DNA of 64,000 bases, taken from the NCBI RefSeq assembly GCF_964213995.1, contig NC_135808.1:108810001-108874000 (forward strand), written 5' to 3'. The position numbers and the translations under genes are program-made. The DNA comes from Mustelus asterias (Eukaryota). Numbering within the stretch: position 1 is the first letter of the stretch; each line of letters begins with the position of its first letter. Below are positions 712 to 56,009 of this stretch, one piece after another. The notes under the pieces are model-generated. The model was given only the letters and a program-made list of their open reading frames with translations. It was not told where the DNA came from and ran no database searches.

Positions 712-1767
712 CAAAGAACAAAGAACAGTACAGCACAGGAAACAGGCCCTTCGGCCCTCCAAGCCTGTGCCGCTCCTTGGTCCAACTAGACCAATCGTTT
801 GTATCCCTCCATTCCCAGGCTGCTCATGTGACTATCCAGGTAAGTCTTAAACGATGTCAGCGTGCCTGCCTCCACCACCCTACTTGGCAGCGCATTCCAA
901 GCCCCCACCACCCTCTGTGTAAAAAACATCCCTCTGATATCTGAGTTATACTTCGCCCCTCTCACCTTGAGCCCGTGACCCCTCATGATCGTCACCTCCG
1001 ACCTGGGAAAAAGCTTCCCACTGTTCACCCTATCTATCCCCTTCATAATCTTGTACACCTCTATTAGATCTCCCCTCATTCTCCGTCTTTCCAGGGAGAA
1101 CAACCCCAGTTTACCCAATCTCTCCTCATAGCTAAGATCCTCCATACCAGGCAACATCCTGGTAAACCTTCTCTGCACTCTCTCTAACGCCTCCACGTCC
1201 TTCTGGTAGTGCGGCGACCAGAACTGGACGCAGTACTCCAAATGTGGCCTAACCAGCGTTCTATACAGCTGCATCATCAGACTCCAGCTTTTATACTCTA
1301 TACCCCGTCCTATAAAGGCAAGCATACCATATGCCTTCTTCACCACCTTCTCCACCTGTGTTGCCACCTTCAAGGATTTGTGGACTTGCACACCTAGGTC
1401 CCTCTGTGTTTCTATACTCCTGATGACTCTGCCATTTATTGTATAACTCCTCCCTACATTATTTCTTCCAAAATGCATCACTTCGCATTTATCCGGATTA
1501 AACTCCATCTGCCACCTCTCCGCCCAATTTTCCAGCCTATCTATATCCTGCTGTATTGCCCGACAGTGCTCTTCGCTATCCGCAAGTCCAGCCATCTTCG
1601 TGTCATCCGCAAACTTGCTGATTACACCAGTTACACCTTCTTCCAAATCATTTATATATATCACAAATAGCAGAGGCCCCAGTACAGAGCCCTGCGGAAC
1701 ACCACTGGTCACAGACCTCCAGCTGGAAAAAGACCCTTCGACCACTACCCTGTCTCCTATGGCCAAG
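712..1767 (-). mobile_element. CR1 LINE, 3' part (RT C-terminus and tail), split by a Penelope-like insertion
   Basis: ORF 786-1817 has [35 protein letters not shown]; (TTCTTTG)n tail at 712-725; resumes at 3015. Confidence 0.95.
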
Positions 1768-1859
1768 ATGTGGAGATGCCGGCGTTGGACTGGGGTAAGC
1801 ACAGTAAGAAGTCTCACAACACCAGGTTAAAGTCCAACAGGTTTATTTGGTAGCAAATA

Positions 1860-1896
1860 CCATAAGCTTTCGGAGCAATGCTCCTTCGTCAGATGG
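1860..1896 (-). ncRNA. Minimal type I hammerhead ribozyme motif (inverted arm)
   Basis: Reverse complement of the 2920-2956 motif. Confidence 0.8.
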
Positions 1897-2229
1897 AGTG
1901 GTCTCTGTTCTCAAACAGGGCACAGACACAGAAATCAAATTACAGAATACTGATTAGAATGCAAATCTCTACAGCCAGCCAGGTCTTAAATGTACAGACA
2001 ATGTGGGGGGAGGGAGCATTCAACACAGGTTAAAGAGATGTGTATTGTCTCCAGACAGTACAGCTTGTGAAATTGTGCAAGTCCAGGAGGCAAGCTGTGG
2101 GGGTTACTGATAATGTGACATAAATTCAACATCCCGGTTTAGACCGTCCTCATGTGTGCGGAACTTGGCTATCAATTTCTGCTCAGTGACTCTGCGCTGT
2201 CGTGTGTCGTGAAGGCCATTGTCGTGAAG

Positions 2230-2712
2230 ACCATTGTCCGCAGCAAACTACCCAGCCTTCAGGAGAACAGTGACCACGACACCACACAACCCTGCCACAG
2301 CAACCTCTGCAAGACGTGCCGGATCATCAACACGGATGCCATCATCTCACGTGAGAACACCATCTACCAGGTACACGGTACCTACTCTTGCAACTCGGCC
2401 AACGTTGTCTACCTGATACGCTGCAAGAAAGGATGTCCCGAGGCATGGTACATTGGGGAAACCATGCAGACGCTACGACAACGGATGAATGAACACCGCT
2501 CGACAATCACCAGGCAAGACTGTTCTCTTCCTGTGGGGGAGCACTTCAGCAGTCACAGGCATTCAGCCTTGGACCTTCAGGTAAGCGTTCTCCTGGGCGG
2601 CCTTCACGACACACGACAGCGCAGAGTCACTGAGCAGAAACTGATAGCCAAGTTCCGCACACATGAGGACGGTCTAAACCGGGATGTTGGATTTATGTCA
2701 CATTATCAGTAA
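2230..2712 (+). pseudogene. Penelope-like GIY-YIG endonuclease domain with upstream Cys-rich linker (truncated ORF)
   Basis: PCHSNLCKTC linker, then NVVYLIRC...WYIGET...LRQRMNEH...VGEHF...E...GLN; the ORF's first ~25 codons come from the inverted arm. Confidence 0.9.
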
Positions 2713-2919
2713 CCCCCACAGCTTGCCTCCTGGACTTGCACAATTTCACAAGCTGTACTGTCTGGAGACAATACACATCTCTTTAACCTGTGTTGAATGC
2801 TCCCTCCCCCCACATTGTCTGTACATTTAAGACCTGGCTGGCTGTAGAGATTTGCATTCTAATCAGTATTCTGTAATTTGATTTCTGTGTCTGTGCCCTG
2901 TTTGAGAACAGAGACCACT

Positions 2920-2956
2920 CCATCTGACGAAGGAGCATTGCTCCGAAAGCTTATGG
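2920..2956 (+). ncRNA. Minimal type I hammerhead ribozyme motif in Penelope pLTR
   Basis: CCAT-CTGACGA-A-GGAGC(ATT)GCTCC-GAAA-GC-T-T-ATGG: helix I CCAT/ATGG, catalytic core, helix II, palindromic AGCT helix III. Confidence 0.82.
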
Positions 2957-3014
2957 TATTTGCTACCAAATAAACCTGTTGGACTTTAACCTGGTGTTGT
3001 GAGACTTCTTACTG

Positions 3015-3241
3015 TCCTATGGACAAGCCAGATCTCCACCCATCTAGCCACTTCTCCTTGTATCCCATGAGCCTTCACCTTCTTAACCAACCTGCCATGT
3101 GGGACTTTGTCAAATGCCTTACTGAAATCCATATAGACGACATCCACGGCCCTTCCTTCATCAACCGTTTTTGTCATTTCCTCAAAAAACTCCATCAAAT
3201 TTGTAAGGCACGACCTCCCTCTTACAAAACCATGCTGTCTT
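3015..3241 (-). mobile_element. CR1 LINE, 5' continuation of 712-1767
   Basis: [33 protein letters not shown]; colinear with 712-1767 across the TSD. Confidence 0.92.
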
Positions 3242-22983: not shown

Positions 22984-23134
22984 TTAAGCTGATCTTTCTC
23001 TCACCCTATCTGTAACTGCAACATTATATTCTGCACCCTCTCCTTTCCTTCTCCTTTATGCATGTTTTGTCTGTCTAGCTTGCAAGAAACAATACTTTTC
23101 ACTGTACCCCAATATATGAAACAATAATAAATCA

Positions 23135-23209
23135 GTAAGAAGTTTCACAACACCAAGTTATGAGACTTCTTACTGTGCCCACCCCAGTCCAACGCCAGCA
23201 TCTCCACAT
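23135..23209. mobile_element. 75-bp inverted-arm Penelope-like micro-insertion
   Basis: CAGTAAGAAGTTTCA.../...TGAGACTTCTTACTG plus tail; TSD CAATAATAAATCA 23122-23134 / 23210-23222. Confidence 0.85.
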
Positions 23210-23290
23210 CAATAATAAATCAAATCAAATCTATCACTGTAAACTATTTTGAAAGAAAGACCTGCATTGCCCTATGGTGCCTTTCATGAC

Positions 23291-23522
23291 ACAGTAAGAG
23301 TTTTAACAACACCAGGTTAAAGTCCAACAGGTTTATTTGGTAGCAAATGCCATTAGCTTTCGGAGCGCTGCTCCTTCGTCAGATGGAGTGGATATCTGAC
23401 GAAGGAGCAGCGCTCCGAAAGCTAATGGCATTTGCTACCAAATAAACCGGTTGGACTTTAACCTGGTGTTGTTAAAACTCTTACTGTGTTTACCCCAGTC
23501 CAACGCCGGCATCTCCACATCA
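23291..23522. mobile_element. 232-bp palindromic Penelope-like insertion with two opposed hammerhead cores
   Basis: About 95-bp inverted arms; hammerhead 23350-23386 (-, complete) and 23394-23428 (+, helix I clipped); TSD TGCCTTTCATGAC 23278-23290 / 23523-23535. Confidence 0.92.
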
Positions 23523-24344
23523 TGCCTTTCATGACCCCAGGATGTCAACAACTGAAGCTTTTTGAAGTGTGGTCACTGTTTTAATCCAGGTCTTGCTATT
23601 GATACTGCCACAAGTTCATTATTATCACCACCTTCACGGTAAATATGTACAAACTGTGTTGGAAGAGGTTCAAGCAGCCTCAACTAAAAATGCATTGTCC
23701 CATGGCCCAAGGGACCTTGTTCCCAGACCCTTGCAGAACAGACAAGCAATTTCCTCTTTAAATTTGTTGCCAAGATTAGATGAGAATTAACTGATCCTAC
23801 CATCTCCCTGGAATGATAAAAAAAACACTTTCACTTTTCAAGTCCCTGTGGAAGGTATTAAACCATTTTGACTACTGACCAGTATATGTGCACTTTATGC
23901 ATTAGTAGATGGTGATTTTTTGGGGCTATTTGTGTGGTTACAATGCAAATTGTGGCGACAAAACAAGAGTTGTGGCAGAAAAGTGATAATCAGCTCACAA
24001 GGAGCAAGTCAGCACTGGCCAACAAATATGACCTTTACAGCAACAATGACAGTTGCATATTCAGACTTTTCACTAATAACTTGTCTCCTCGGTACTGTAC
24101 TAACTTTGTCTGCTTGAAGCTGTCTGGGATCTCACATTTAACTCCGCTTAAATCATGCTGAAAGCTGCAGTTCCTGACAAATGAACACATTGATGAGGTT
24201 CCCCCATTGTAACCCAAGCACCACTTCAACAAACTCATCTGTGCTCCAAAATACAATCATTGCTCTCTGGAACTGGCTGTTTGGGAGGTGCTTGATTTAC
24301 ATATAAACTATAGATCAGGAAATGAATTGCAACTGACCATAAAA

Positions 24345-31180: not shown

Positions 31181-31474
31181 AGATTTCAAATTGCAGGTGG
31201 CACTCAAAGCCAGCGGGGTTCTCTTTAAATATGCAACTCCAGTGATGTCTGTGAGGCCTGTTCTGCGAGTTGAACCTGAGGTCCAAGCAGAGGAGTTGCG
31301 GTGGCTTCACCACCTGACCAATTGGCAATGGGGTCAGGCTCAGAATGTATTAACTTATCAACCAGATTTAACCCAGTCATTGAAGAAACTAACAGTATGT
31401 CACTTATACTCATGGCTCTTTTTTCCACTGGCATACTTCTGTCATTTGACTATGTGCTGATCTGTTTCTCTTAG

Positions 31475-32715
31475 GTTCAAGGTCCTGCAAATTGCTCCAC
31501 CAGTGGATTCTACTACTAGCGTTTGTTTGGAGTCCAGGGGTTGTGAATGGAGTCTGCATATGTGATGGCAACCTTGATTTCAGGACCTTTAAGTTTAGCC
31601 AGGTGAGAGAAGAATGTTGCCTAAACTTCACTGGCTCTTCCATTGGTGCCCTTCAATGGAACGTCTTCACAAACTTGTCAGGAATCAAGGTCCTCGACCT
31701 CTCAAATTGCAACATATCTGAGATCTATGAAGTGGATGAAACCCCAACCTCTCTGGAGGTCGTGTACCTGGACCACAATCAATTAGAACAATTACCCTCT
31801 AACTTCCTCACAAACGCACCCAGCTTAAAAGTTCTTCACCTGGAGAAAAACCAGCTTCAACAGTTACCAGAGAACGTCCTCGAGGCTTCAGACCAGATTC
31901 AGGAGTTGTACCTGGACTCCAACAATTTAATTTCTATACCTGCTAGTGTCTTTAAACCAAGCCTTGTGAAATTGTCTGTTTTTAATAACACCTTGGAGTG
32001 TACATGTGCCTTGTATGATGGTTTGGCGAAATATATTACTGTAAACGTAAGCATCAGCGGATCAGAAAATGTGCTAATGTGCTACACAACAAAGCACCCA
32101 CAAGGTCTGAATATCATCGCCATTCATCGCTCAGATATCTGCAGGTCCCATGGTCTCACAGCCCTCTTCATTTGCCTGCCATTGATTGCAGCTCTTGCTC
32201 TGGTGTTGTGCTGTTACTGCTGGAGAAGTAAAAGGTCAAATTTTAAAGTGATGAGACAAGACAATCAAATTTGCACCATCGAGAAGTCTGGCTTTTCGAA
32301 TGCGGGGGACCATCACTATATAACTTGCAGGACTCCGGAGACAACCCCCATTCCCACAGGGTATGAAAACAGCATCCTGGCCAGAAACCAGCTCATGTTA
32401 CGCCCCTCAACTGCATTGCTCGGGAGCAACCGTGACTTGTACGAAGAGGTGGAGATAAAGCTCGGCAGTTCTGTCGACTCAGTCACACGTGCTGACAAGA
32501 TTTATCTCGACATGCCCAATAATAACGTGGGGGACGAAGATGCTGTTGAGGCAGTCCATGCTGAGCCAGAATTGGTGAGTGTCACAGAGGAGTTACAGGA
32601 GGAAGATCGTCAAAGGCTCTACATGAATAAGTCCGCAAACTACTACAACCTAGTTCCTGGCATTGAGTTAGACGACTCTGACCATGGTGAATATGAAAAC
32701 ATTGACCTATCCTAG
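31475..32715 (+). CDS. Main coding exon of a type I membrane leucine-rich-repeat receptor (LRRC25-like; orthology unverified)
   Basis: Acceptor TCTGTTTCTCTTAG|G; signal-like WILLLAFVWSPGVVNG; Cys cap; about 5 LxxLxLxxNxL repeats; LRRCT-like NTLECTC; TM ALFICLPLIAALALVLCCYCW; long Tyr-rich tail; ORF uninterrupted; AATAAA at 32843. Confidence 0.92.
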
Positions 32716-43408: not shown

Positions 43409-43773
43409 TTTTTAAAAATACTTTTCCAATTCAATCAAATCAAATCCAATTCAGAGTCTCAACAAGTTGAGACATTTCAGATCCAGGCTGACAAGACAGG
43501 GCAGGCGACCAAACCACCCTGTCCTGGGCCCGATCTACATGAGCCAAGCTGATTGGAGAAGGGGGAGGTTCCTCCTCCAAGACTTAGGCTCATTTGCATC
43601 CTAGCCAAAAGGCCGAGATGCCGCTTTTAAAAATTGCTTCATATGAAACATATGAAGCCTCAGCGTAACCTAATGACCTCAACCAAGTGCAGCATCCTCT
43701 CCATGCTACACTTGATCTTAGCCAAAAGGCCGAGAAGCGAACAGATACTACACTTGATCTTAGCCAAAACGCC
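43409..43773 (-). mobile_element. U2 snRNA-headed, structured SINE-like retroelement
   Basis: U2 nt 11-45, nt 2-36 and an internal nt 7-23; multiple hairpins; short A-tail; TSD GCCACATGAT 43399-43408 / 43774-43783. Confidence 0.8.
43706..43773 (-). pseudogene. RNU2: Tandem U2 snRNA 5' fragments (not a functional U2 gene)
   Basis: TCGCTTCTCGGCCTTTTGGCTAAGATCAAGTGTAG matches vertebrate U2 as recalled; Sm site and 3' stem-loops absent. Confidence 0.9.
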
Positions 43774-43816
43774 GCCACATGATACATCAGGAAACCCTGG
43801 ACATAATTCATCAGGA

Positions 43817-44054
43817 TGTGGAGATGCCGGTGTTGGACTGGGGTGAACACAGTATGCAACCACAGTATGCAAGGCCTGGCTGGCTGTAGGGATTCGCATT
43901 CTAATCAGTATTCTGTAACTTGATTTTGTGTCTCTGTGCCCTGTTTGAGAGCACATTTCCACTCCATCTGACGAAGGAGCAGCGCTCCGAAAGCTTATGG
44001 TATTTGCTACCAAATAAACCTGTTGGACTTTAACCTGGTGTTGTTAAAACTCTT
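43817..44054. mobile_element. Penelope-like insertion: inverted tail plus pLTR fragment with hammerhead (43964-44000, +)
   Basis: Homologous to 2830-3012; duplication ACATAATTCATCAGGA 43801-43816 / 44055-44070 (includes 2-nt microhomologies at each end). Confidence 0.9.
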
Positions 44055-45084
44055 ACATAATTCATCAGGACAGGATTCCGCAATACGGTGTGCACCTCTG
44101 CAGTGAGAAACTCCCCCTGTTCTCGCCCCCACCACAGGACTTAGTCCCAAAAGAAAAGATTCGGCCCACAGAGTCTGAACCAGGAAACGTTAGTTAAACT
44201 AGTTAATTCATTGCAAAGCCAAAGAAAGAGAGGGAAGGAAAAATGGGATTAAGAGCGATAAGAGAGAAAAAGTGTTATGTATTGTATATTTTGTCTGGCT
44301 TGCTGTACTTTGCAAGCCAACGCATTGTACGATCACAGATCCTTTTTTTCTTATTAGTCTGACTGTGATAGCAATAAAGAACAGTTGCAATATTAATTAC
44401 CTCCTGTGTGTACTTGTGTACCTTTTGATCCCATAAGGTATCAGGATCAAAAACACAACAAAGTAAAAATGAAATTATTTTTAAATTTCTTTAAGATTTC
44501 CAACTTGAATTAAAAGCTGAAGGATTAGGATTTCACACTGATAAAACTACATTTTCCGTGCCTGAGAAAGGTTGTTTGGTAAAATTAAAACTTATTCTGT
44601 GAAAAATGCACCAGCATTTGAATGGACGAAGCATGACCAGTTCTGTTCTGTTTAGTAGGAACAAATAGGTGAGTACGGCAACTTCATGCCCTGCATGTAT
44701 TTAAATGCTGAATCCCTTCACAAGGTAAGGGCAGCAAAGTTTCTGAAGGAGTTAACAAATTTGGCAGCATTTGTTATTTCCCAGGTTTCGCTGCGAATAA
44801 CAGAAGTTGCTATCAGATTTACTACTTAATAACACTGAATGTTGAGACAGCCTCAGTGTTATTCTAACCACAAAATCCTGATCAATATATTGTATAGAAT
44901 GCAGCTTTTCCAGAAATGTAACTTTTAATTTGGCATTTTGCACGAGGTGAATCCATAAACTATTACAATGTACATGAGCAGAAAAGACCTTTAGATTCAA
45001 AAGACTAGCCCCAGAGTAACTTTCAAAAGGGAATTGGATATATATTTGGAAGGGGGAAATGCAGGGCAATTGGGGAAAATTTAG

Positions 45085-47900: not shown

Positions 47901-49009
47901 GTGTACACATCTCTGAAGTGAGAATCCAGCTCTCCCACAGCACTCTCTGTCCTAAATGGATTTGTCAGCAAAAGGTCAGCATCACTCCTCCCATTAAAAA
48001 GAAGTTCAGACTTGGAAATAGTTGTTGAATAAAAGAACTTTTAAATTATAATAAATGTATACATATAAGCAATAGAAAAGACTTTTATAATATTTTTAAT
48101 GTTTGTACCTGTTGCACAATAATCATTTGATGTGATTTAACTATTCAACATGATAAGCATGTTTCTTCGAGGTTCCGTCAGTTCTCTTGAGAGGTCAGAA
48201 GGGTTTTGTGACTGGACAAGTTTGGGAAACTGTGCTAATCCTATCCCAAACAATGTACTTAACAACAGCCATAGAAGAGCACCCTCTACTGCATCGTCTT
48301 AGCACTTTAGCTTCCCACTCATTATGGCATCACTGAATATAATAGATGATCTAATCTGAATCAATGACTAAACTACCTAGCCGCACCTTCTCCTGCTCGA
48401 CAATCCTCTGAGAACTCTGCATTCCTCAGATTCTGGCCTCTTGTCCAACTCCCACTTTACTCACCCAGCCTAAATCGTCAGTTGTCTAGGTCCAAAGTTC
48501 TACAAATTTCCTCCCTATACCTCTCCATCTCTCTCTCTCTCTCCTTCTCCTTTGCCCCTACCTCTTTGACATTAGGTCACCTATTCTAATGTTAGGTCAC
48601 CTATTAATTAATTAGGTCACCTATTCTAATGTTTCCAGTCTGGACTTGCTGTCAAATTTTACCTGAATTCAGCCCAAGATGCACTTGAAGTTGCTATATA
48701 AATGAAGTTATTGCTGTCGTTATGCGCAACTGGTGCTGTGAACTCATATCCACAAGAAGTCTGCACTCCACAGATGTTAACAGATGGAAAGAGAATCAGA
48801 GCTACTTCTGTTCCGAAGAGATAGCTTGCCTTTTCCTGAGTCTTTTTGATAGCTTCCCTTAGACATCAATATGTAAAAATAAACAGTATTAGAAAGTAAT
48901 AATGCTCTGAAACAACTGTTAATAGTTCATTCTTAAAAAATGTTTTCCCAGTTAATTGATCTGTGTCATTTGTATTGTGCCCATATACTATAATTATAAC
49001 ATGTTTGCA

Positions 49010-49130
49010 CTGTTTGAGAGCAGATTTCCACTCCATCTGACGAAGGAGCAGTGCTCCGAAAGCTTATGGTATTTGCTACCAAATAAACCTGTTGGACTTT
49101 AACCTGGTGTTGTGAGACTTCTTACTGTGT
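49010..49130 (+). mobile_element. Single-arm Penelope-like pLTR fragment with hammerhead (49033-49069)
   Basis: CCATCTGACGAAGGAGCAGTGCTCCGAAAGCTTATGG; CCATATACTA repeated at 48981-48990 and 49135-49144. Confidence 0.88.
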
Positions 49131-50544
49131 CTTTCCATATACTACCCCAGCCAATTGTGGCACATTACTGATGCTATGTGTGACCTTAAAGCACATTTCC
49201 ACAGAGTACAAAATAACTGTCCTGACTCACAGGAAAGGCGACCTGTCTCTAGATATAGGTGTACATTGACCCTGCAACCTGTGATTTAGTGCTGATAGTC
49301 CTGTTTACTCAATTTAGGCGGGCCAACAATTCAAAGCTGATTCATAAAACTGCCTTAAGTGACTTGAATTGATGAGCCAGTTTGGGGTGTGTATATGTCT
49401 GGTAATCCATTCCCCTGGCTGACTCTCTTCCAAGTAGCATGTTTTCGGTATGCACAAGGAAGGATGTGGGAAGCAAAGCCGACAGCATGCACCTAAGATC
49501 CCTCCTCTAACCCCAGCACAACTCTTTATATGAAGAATGGTGCATGTGCCCAAAAGCAAGACCAGAACCCTTGAACACAAGGCCATCTACACTCTTTGAG
49601 TGCAAATCACTGTACAGGCTCTAGGGGGTTAAATATGACAAAAACAGCTCTCCCCACACCTGCTTCTGTTCAAACAGCAGCACCTTTTGATTTATTAACT
49701 TGTTTGCCACTGAATGCTATTTACTTGGCAGAATTATTAACCGACCTAGAATTTGGAGTGGAATGTTGCTAAGGTTATGTGTGTTGTATAAACAAAATAC
49801 GTCTAATTCTCCATGTGATTCGGTAAGGTATAAACTAAAGTATAAAGCACTGAAACATTGGCCTTGCTAAATAAGTAGGAACACATCACTTTTGCACAGC
49901 AAGCTTTAACCCTTAATTTACTGAACAATTTGGAAATGTTGTAAATTAAGAATGGGGTGAAATAGGATGGGAAAAGACTTGTGTGGAGCAAAAATAACAG
50001 CATGGACTATTTGGGCCGAATAGCCTATAAAGTGCATTCTATGTAATACTCTTTGATGCCTCCTCTTGTAACATAGACTTTGAGATGAAATCTTTGTCCT
50101 TTTATATTCTAGCAGGTTAGAAAATAAACAGCAGACGTGATTGAGCTGTGATGTAGCTTTGAATCAGAAGACAGAAGTAACTGCTGGAAGAAGCATGGCC
50201 TCACTGACGCAGAGAGAAGAAACAGAAAAGTTAAAGCAGTTGCCAGACCAGGAAACACGAAACATATTTTTCAAACCACCTTATTCCACCAAGACAAGGG
50301 TAAAATAATTGATCCCATGCTCCCAGCAAGCAGCCCTGCTCGGAGGGAGTATGGGTTGGAGAACTTTTCTTGCAAACTACAACCCCATCTCCAACTTTCC
50401 TTAAAGTACTGGAACTTGTTGCCCTTGCTGTTCTTTCCTGGAATTCATGTTTAAATCCCTCCTTAGTTATGAACTTGTTCTCTCTAAATTCACAATTGAC
50501 AGCCTATTTTTTGTAACTGAAGATTTAAGACAAAGACTTCGCAG

Positions 50545-55130: not shown

Positions 55131-55845
55131 TAAACAGGAACATTACAGAGCTTAAGTGACCTTGAGACATCACAAGTAGACTGGAGTATTAAGCTTGGTG
55201 CTGTAAACTGTTTAGGGAAAAACAGTTCTATGTATGCAGAGTAAACCTGTTGCCTGTCCAACAGGTCGATGTGATGTGTCCAGTGTGTGGTTGAAGAAAG
55301 TTAGTGTGCTTTCTGCTATTGCGTGCTAGTTTGCTTCTCATTTTCAGCTTATAATGCAAAATAAAGAACAAAATGTGTTAAGTCTCTCCCTGCCAATACA
55401 CAGCCAATACATGGAAACTGGGTCCCTCTGGCCCCAGGCTAAATCTTCCGATGAACTCTGAGGATGCTAGGTCCCCAGACATGCACCATGCAGACCCACT
55501 AGCATGTGAACACGCCTTGCATTGAACTAAACTCCCAGCTATGGGTGAATAGCTCACTGCCTTGTGGATACCTCAGGAGAGTTGAAAGCTAAGGGAGGAA
55601 ACACTGCCAAAAAATCTGGAATTAGAGATCAAAGGCAGACTGATGTCTAAATATTCAACTTTCTGGCAACTCCTGCAACCAAACTGATGCCAAAAGTAGT
55701 GCTATTTGCATTTGAACTCAATTGAGAAGAGAACCCTGACAGGAAAAGCAAGGGTCCCAATACCGACTATTGGGGAACATCACTACAAACCTCCCCCAGC
55801 CCGACAAATATCCATTCAAATTACTCTCTGCTTCCTATTATTCAG

Positions 55846-55987
55846 TAAGAATTTTAACAACACCAGGTTAAGGTCCAACAGGTTTATTTGGTAGCAAAAG
55901 CCACACCAAATAAACCTGTTGGACTTTAACCTGGTGTTGTTAAACTTCTTACTGTGTTTACCCCAGTCCAACGCCGGCATCTCCACA
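55846..55987. mobile_element. 142-bp palindromic Penelope-like insertion (no hammerhead core)
   Basis: About 50-bp inverted arms plus tail; TSD TCCTATTATTCAG 55833-55845 / 55988-56000. Confidence 0.9.
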
Positions 55988-56009
55988 TCCTATTATTCAG
56001 CCAATTTTG

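Follow-up and report, generated by a model that had tools for sequence, protein, structure and literature searches.

Inverted, one-end-tailed insertions of a putatively Neptune-type Penelope-like element in a 64 kb window of Mustelus asterias: junction details and a modest lead on their priming

Insertions in the window and the identity of the element

The window (the whole stretch of 64,000 nucleotides of Mustelus asterias DNA that was analysed) was inspected at sequence level and holds five short hairpin insertions (c1-c5; Table 1), all of them at the coordinates given beforehand in a preliminary description of this DNA. They are 5'-truncated copies of a Penelope-like element (PLE), with lengths of 75-1247 bp. 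When the c1 arms were used as a BLAST query against the window, the ten arms of c1-c5 were recovered together with one further, single-armed copy, c6 (49006-49129), which had been left out of the earlier list. The 30-nt tail motif has five exact occurrences in the window, where none is expected, and the family density amounts to ~6 copies per 64 kb, in non-repetitive DNA. An unbiased fold-back scan returned 12 inverted pairs, with a flanking repeat only in c1, c3 and c5, and missed c2 and c4. The spacing between c2 and c3 (23122-23535) is only 55 bp, and the two have the same orientation yet represent different haplotypes. The filler of c6 is AT-rich and palindromic and resembles a fold-back of the target end (48981-49144).

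Table 1. Positions of the insertions and of the features within them (reach is given in nt upstream of CTTAC; TSD, target-site duplication)
Feature	Position	Strand	Remarks
c1, left TSD	1755-1767		13 bp; single copy in CR1 paralog 54082-54070
c1, tailed arm	1767-2217	-	Tail 1767-1803; reach 414
c1, inner-junction filler	2218-2227		10-nt gap; iterated switch between both arm ends
c1, tail-less arm	2228-3015	+	Reach 785
ORF, C-terminal 158 aa	2236-2712	+	CX4CxxC linker and GIY-YIG endonuclease; stop 2710-2712
Putative minimal hammerhead-type motif, pseudo-LTR	2920-2956	+	By eye against PMC4209133; mirror copy 1860-1896 (-)
c1, right TSD	3015-3027		1 mismatch
c2	23122-23222		TSD 23122-23134 / 23210-23222; target, LINE 3' tail
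c2, tail-less arm	23133-23160	-	Reach 26
c2, tailed arm	23157-23210	+	Reach 17
c3	23278-23535		TSD 23278-23290 / 23523-23535; inner junction with 5-nt overlap
c3, tail-less arm	23289-23398	-	Reach 104
c3, tailed arm	23394-23524	+	Reach 91
c4	43801-44070		Repeat 43801-43816 / 44055-44070, at most 16 bp
c4, tailed arm	43815-43854	-	Barely beyond tail; reach 3
c4, filler	~43855-43870
c4, tail-less arm	43871-44056	+	Reach 184
c6	49006-49129	+	One arm, tail-less; AT-rich 15-nt filler on 5' side
c6, flanks	48981-48990 / 49135-49144		10-bp exact repeat, offset from both ends; 11/13 if extended
c5	55833-56000		TSD 55833-55845 / 55988-56000
c5, tail-less arm	55843-55904	-	Reach 60
c5, tailed arm	55905-55989	+	Reach 48

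The coding fragment of c1 (2236-2709) matched the Pfam GIY-YIG family PF01541 with 23.9 bits against a cut-off of 22.6 (E = 5.4e-5). Among 115 candidates 36 relatives were found, the best being a Mustelus asterias protein with 98% identity, and shark relatives carry a reverse transcriptase (RT) upstream of the endonuclease (P0004, 80%; P0009, 62%); the RT is absent from the 5'-truncated copies in the window, and no full-length copy lies within the 64 kb. The Penelope-like origin proposed earlier is borne out by the GIY-YIG domain and by these relatives with RT and endonuclease. Residues C63, C67, H103 and H109 (CCHH, with two Cys between GIY and YIG) are invariant in 9/9 aligned sequences; in the CX4CxxC linker the first two Cys are invariant and the third is present in eight of the nine. 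A CCHH motif and a CX2-5CxxC linker between RT and endonuclease serve as clade criteria in the definitions of Craig et al. (2021; PMC8557442), under which the predicted protein would place the shark element as Neptune/Nematis-type; Neptune has been reported as widespread in vertebrates (10.64898/2026.07.22.740005). The Penelope/Poseidon clade was considered and rejected, as its members would lack the CX2-5CxxC linker that the shark element possesses. The features of insertions of endonuclease-bearing (EN+) PLEs, namely a 30-40-bp tail on one end, an inverted 5'-truncated copy and a TSD, were all found. Pieces of the endonuclease also occur in annotated shark proteins (e.g. P0006, P0013, P0017, P0020 and P0034), among them NOXP20-like, cytochrome P450, septin 5a, XRCC5 and USP8 isoforms, and represent either exonisation or gene-model errors.

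In the putative hammerhead motif (2920-2956) the core boxes, the bulged base, stem II and a palindromic 15.2-16.2 were recognized by eye, and stem II folds; an Rfam search over the window returned no hammerhead and no other family. Uncleaved hammerhead RNA is the template in PAc (Poseidon of Anolis carolinensis), as reported by Frangieh et al. (2024; PMC11167929), and in the shark family the predicted cleavage site is crossed by six of the 11 arms. One of the 11, the tail-less arm of c5, seems to stop exactly at that predicted site (55904), a reading that depends on six diverged bases being subfamily sequence.

Target sites, outer ends and their recurrence

The longest flanking direct repeat measures 13 bp in c1 (one mismatch), c2, c3 and c5 and 16 bp in c4; repeats of at least 13 nt were obtained at random end pairs in 208 of 200,000 trials. 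The preliminary description had assigned 13 bp to four copies and a range of 12-16 bp to the fifth. As longest repeats these figures stand, but the overlap range had been allowed for c4 only: applied to all copies it gives 11-13 bp for c1, 9-13 for c2 and c3, 12-16 for c4 and 8-13 for c5, so that every copy has a range, with 12-13 common to all five. The shortest possible repeat spans 8-12 bp, whereas the longest is 13 bp in four of the five. Insertion c1 sits within a CR1-type LINE, with RVT_1 on either side, and c2 within a LINE 3' tail at a short AATCA repeat. The c1 13-mer is present once in the CR1 paralog and the c2 13-mer once in each of three LINE-tail paralogs; these empty-site proxies confirm 13 bp for c1 and c2. 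A proxy of this kind was looked for at c3, c4, c5 and c6 and was not found. A microsatellite bias has been hypothesized for Neptune; here the targets of four of the five insertions are not simple repeats, which makes the TSDs readable. Targets are AT-rich in both PAc (PMC11167929) and the shark family (44 of the 68 TSD bases are A or T), and no clear cleavage motif was seen by eye at the ten nick sites.

In all five insertions an element 3' end faces outward on either side, as had been described, and each insertion has one tailed and one tail-less arm. Tail-less arms end in or near CTTAC-TGTG (hereafter site A), while tailed arms end 33-37 nt further 3' (site B); the tail is 37 nt long if counted after CTTAC and 33 nt if counted after CTTACTGTG. 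The combination of one A end with one B end in 5/5 has, by simple arithmetic, a probability of 0.03 if the ends chose at random. The outer junctions overlap the target by 1, 1, 2, 2, 2, 2, 2, 2, 3 and 2 nt if ATG follows the tail in the template, which c3 and the consensus of loose ends in public contigs both suggest, and by 1, 1, 2, 1, 2, 0, 2, 2, 3 and 2 nt if it does not; an overlap is thus present at 9-10 of the ten. When each junction was modelled as having two runs that arise by chance, the overlap sum gave p = 0.0008-0.0075 (with ATG) or 0.006-0.036 (without). Microhomology had earlier been ascribed to the tail-less arm only; the division into one tailed and one tail-less arm holds in 5/5, but overlaps of up to 3 nt occur at both ends. 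These shared bases were, we infer, contributed by 3' ends of the target during pairing with the element RNA: a longest repeat of 13 bp in 4/5 with a minimum of 8-12 fits an origin of the overlap from primer ends of the target. In the empty paralogs of c1 and c2 the repeat has its terminal base at either end.

The UGUG of site A can pair with the CACA of site B, and the GUCCAAC of the tail with an upstream GUUGGAC (1767-1840, minus strand). RNA of the start-site region folded no better than shuffled sequences (z = -1.09, -0.03, -1.28 and +0.16), and base-pairing between the two sites is offered only as a lead.

Contigs from four of 22 listed public sequencing runs, representing three organisms, were placed on positions 1700-2598 of the window at 85% likeness. 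Long loose ends with unrelated flanks (agreement 0.33-0.37) were counted among 24 of 2274 loose-end rows; at 1767 they comprised at least 1002 contigs in run X19 and at least 683 in X11, which is another organism, and at 1801 at least 520 in X19, the figures for X19 at the two positions not being a tail ratio. Within the same 24 rows X21 and X1 appear with neither terminus and X11 without 1801. Loose ends with unrelated flanks at both positions indicate that the two termini are family-wide and uphold the earlier claim of two defined start sites. The contigs give termini only, TSD lengths and arm order not being derivable from them. Behind 2217 the family sequence parts from the window sequence, and the loose-end consensus at 2217 and 2228 is the basis for reading the c1 filler as in Table 1.

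Opposite-strand joints from 1767 to 1800/1801 were seen in all four runs (X19, 29 + 35; X11, 21 + 37; X21, 1 + 2; X1, 1 + 0; among 15 of 160 joints) and are read as a tailed 3' end facing a tail-less 3' end; they could have arisen by re-insertion at the TSD, by duplication of a unit or by homing to a terminus of a copy already in place. Also among these 15 of 160 joints, one from 1767 to 1824, ~20 nt inside site A, occurs in three of the four runs (3, 1 and 2 contigs). Summed contig depth over the tail is about half that just inside site A in 4/4 runs; this would fit one tail per two arms, and it was not used as evidence since such depths give no copy number. Searches for further flanked copies gave 0 among viral contigs by pattern, 0 by protein and 0 in prokaryote genomes; two metagenome loci were rejected because they match over only 19-20 nt, as expected by chance.

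Arm reach and inner junctions

The reach of each arm (Table 1) was measured upstream of CTTAC; those of the c4 tailed and c5 tail-less arms were read by eye, automatic alignment of the former having been spurious (score 22). The tail-less arm reaches further in all five insertions (sign test, p = 0.0625 two-sided; pairing permutation, 8/120), and a null that allows for the head start of this arm gave p = 0.044-0.085 for the 5/5 order. The earlier claim that the tail-less arm reaches further is therefore true of every copy but is not significant (p = 0.04-0.09), and its description as the longer arm fails by total cDNA length in c2, c3 and c5, in which the tailed arm is the longer. In the same three insertions the inner ends lie only 9-13 nt apart, a closeness reached in 2/120 pairing permutations and with p = 0.001-0.012 under length nulls, in a post hoc test picked after the data had been seen. 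The tailed arm of c4 ends 3 nt past site A.

The inner junction is a 4-nt near overlap in c2, a 5-nt overlap in c3 and a near-blunt join in c5, with near-palindromic centres in all three; c1 and c4 carry fillers of repeated units, and c4 is without a palindrome. These junctions resemble microhomology-mediated joining or RT template jumps; joining of the former kind would be ascribed to polymerase theta. The two arms of one insertion differ at 2/416 positions in c1, 1/94 in c3 and 2/47 in c5, and comparison with c1 gave 9/91 differences for c3 and 2/48 for c5. Both c3 arms therefore derive from one haplotype; those of c5 resemble c1 as closely as they resemble one another and are uninformative on haplotype sharing.

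Probable priming of both target strands and the rival explanations

Much of this architecture has precedents. In target-primed reverse transcription with PAc in vitro (PMC11167929) both strands are cleaved and extended and RT starts at two adjacent sites that bound the tail, points in which the shark family is read as alike; a dimer is predicted for PAc. The same paper reports no strand difference in start site, calls the start site non-homologous to the target and leaves the later integration steps unvalidated; its text does not use 'TSD', 'stagger' or 'microhomolog', and its figures and supplementary data may bear on priming homology. PAc differs in belonging to another clade, and in the paper the two sites are not allotted to the two ends of a single event. 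Pen2a_Av of Adineta vaga has an inverted pseudo-LTR, a one-sided 31-bp tail and 8-10-bp TSDs, for which an antisense self-priming model was proposed (Arkhipova, 2013; PMC3846280), and complex EN+ PLE insertions with the tail at 'either end' of insertion units are illustrated by Craig et al. (2021, Fig. 2). Both share with the shark copies the inverted 5'-truncated copy, the 30-40-bp one-end tail, the short TSD and junction palindromes; published complex insertions have TSDs of 8, 9 and 10 bp, compared with 13 bp in four of the five shark copies, and the shark products, unlike those, can be as small as 75 bp. The 5'-inverted insertions of L1 (PMC11702581) show discrete 12-18-bp TSDs, priming microhomology, nearby inner breakpoints and end-joining scars. 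As in the model below, the second target end primes the RNA by microhomology; in L1 twin priming, however, the second primer acts at internal, variable sites and the arms copy adjacent, nearly non-overlapping RNA, whereas in the shark family the primers would act at fixed sites 33-37 nt apart and the same RNA segment is copied, which gives a hairpin.

The inverted pseudo-LTR with one-end tail and TSD, the extension of both strands and the two RT start sites are thus already published, as are most of the points that the preliminary description had marked as its own inference (PMC11167929). In the available text of the PLE literature, including PMC8969392, a near-fixed 13-nt stagger, primer-template microhomology and inner ends 9-13 nt apart were not found; that of PMC9977147, PMC12910113 and 10.64898/2026.07.22.740005 is silent on such rules, and literature searches brought up no paper that states, for PLEs, a fixed stagger, microhomology in priming or an order of the arms. 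That of PMC3846280 and PMC8557442 yielded no arm-order or microhomology rule, and according to these papers the tail may be at either end. What is added here is a Neptune-type family with the known architecture, quantitative junction details and a modest mechanistic lead from five copies.

In the model that we favour, the GIY-YIG endonuclease would nick both strands ~13 nt apart and leave two 3' overhangs, a cut geometry read back from the observed TSDs. Each 3' end would pair over 1-3 nt with the element RNA and prime cDNA, site A serving one of them and site B the other; the two termini are seen directly, the microhomology is supported by the overlaps, and priming of both strands has been observed in vitro in another clade. 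The preserved TSD and the overlap at both ends argue that both strands at a cut staggered by ~13 nt act as primers, in agreement with the earlier proposal, although its wording 'near the RNA 3' end' was imprecise, initiation being internal to the RNA in PMC11167929. The same RNA may then serve both primers with A ahead of B, the B cDNA either following and displacing the A cDNA or halting at site A and being completed by the A cDNA snapping back, so that the tail-less arm would reach further, often by only 9-13 nt. In a last step microhomology or iterated template switching would unite the two cDNA ends, and the gaps would be filled; the scars are present at the junctions. Priming by both overhangs of a 13-nt staggered cut at A and B with head-to-head joining is considered probable; for the whole model, with one RNA and A leading, the balance is about even. 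Four observations favour a shared RNA on which A goes first: the strict pairing of A with B, the close inner ends, a c4 tailed arm that halts at site A, and the lone A arm that makes up c6. The proximity of the inner ends, which was absent from the preliminary description, is better support for such an order than the arm order itself; the 'fixed order' stated there comes from five two-armed copies and is not significant by its own measure. Against the model stand the repeat of at most 16 bp in c4 and the lack of a clean 13-bp repeat in c6, and the joints from 1767 to 1800/1801 are not explained by it. The tail at 'either end' (Craig et al., 2021) and the 34-bp repeat of D. virilis Penelope, often at the 3' end of the ORF copy (PMC2377424), imply that the A/B order is not universal.

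The nearest competitor, rated somewhat unlikely, is unordered twin priming, in which priming at A does not depend on priming at B. The templates would be a pair of RNAs bound by a dimer or both pseudo-LTRs of a single tandem transcript, and the arms would differ in reach by chance combined with the 35-nt head start of A, or owing to a limited length of the 5' pseudo-LTR. This model accounts equally well for the TSD, the microhomology and the two termini, leaves the 5/5 order at p = 0.044-0.085 and agrees with the greater total length of the tailed arm in 3/5 and with the dimer predicted for PAc (PMC11167929); what it leaves unpredicted is the 9-13-nt spacing of the inner ends in 3/5 and, in its two-RNA version, the pairing of one A with one B end in 5/5. 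A lower probability is given to a single priming event followed by self-priming fold-back (Arkhipova, 2013), with a tail from endonuclease resolution of the intermediate (Craig et al., 2021), even though this has been proposed in print (PMC3846280, PMC8557442) and would suit the near-palindromic centres of c2, c3 and c5 and the nearly identical arms. A plain snap-back of one cDNA fails here, since it cannot gain a tail that its template lacks and the further-reaching arm is tail-less in 5/5; moreover, microhomology with an intact TSD at both outer ends points to two primers, c4 has no palindrome, and in vitro the tail is the interval between two RT starts (PMC11167929).

Short inverted arms and a near-constant TSD would also be expected of MITE-like units amplified as DNA by a transposase, a resemblance that had been remarked on before. 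It is superficial: the five inner junctions and the lengths (75-1247 bp) are all different, the tail makes the two ends unlike, the coding part of c1 is a GIY-YIG fragment from an RT element and c6 is single-armed, all of which makes this origin very improbable. Palindromes are a known source of misassembly, yet a fold-back artefact of assembly or sequencing is scarcely credible given TSDs with empty paralogs, substitutions between the arms and the same termini in independent public runs.

A stronger reading than the model favoured above, by which PLE integration in general would be an obligate, ordered double priming on one RNA by a dimeric RT-endonuclease with a fixed 13-nt cut and A always leading, is put forward tentatively and with some doubt; the overhangs might then, with the same reserve, be seated at A and B through 1-3 nt of telomerase-like primer-template pairing. 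If it were true, a single mechanism would account for inverted pseudo-LTR, one-sided tail and TSD alike, and new copies would mostly start out as hairpins. Hairpins of the kind described here are open to misfiling as MITEs. At ~6 copies per 64 kb in non-repetitive targets, one shark assembly should give thousands of readable junctions, and junctions as clean as these make the mechanism behind the inverted structures of PLEs testable.

Two further features of the window were noted. Just before c4 (43700-43770) lie two short tandem fragments that, read on the minus strand, look like the 5' end of U2 snRNA; no Rfam match for them reached the gathering score. A host ORF at 31450-32715 on the plus strand encodes a leucine-rich-repeat protein (LRR_8, E = 6e-15) with a probable transmembrane segment.
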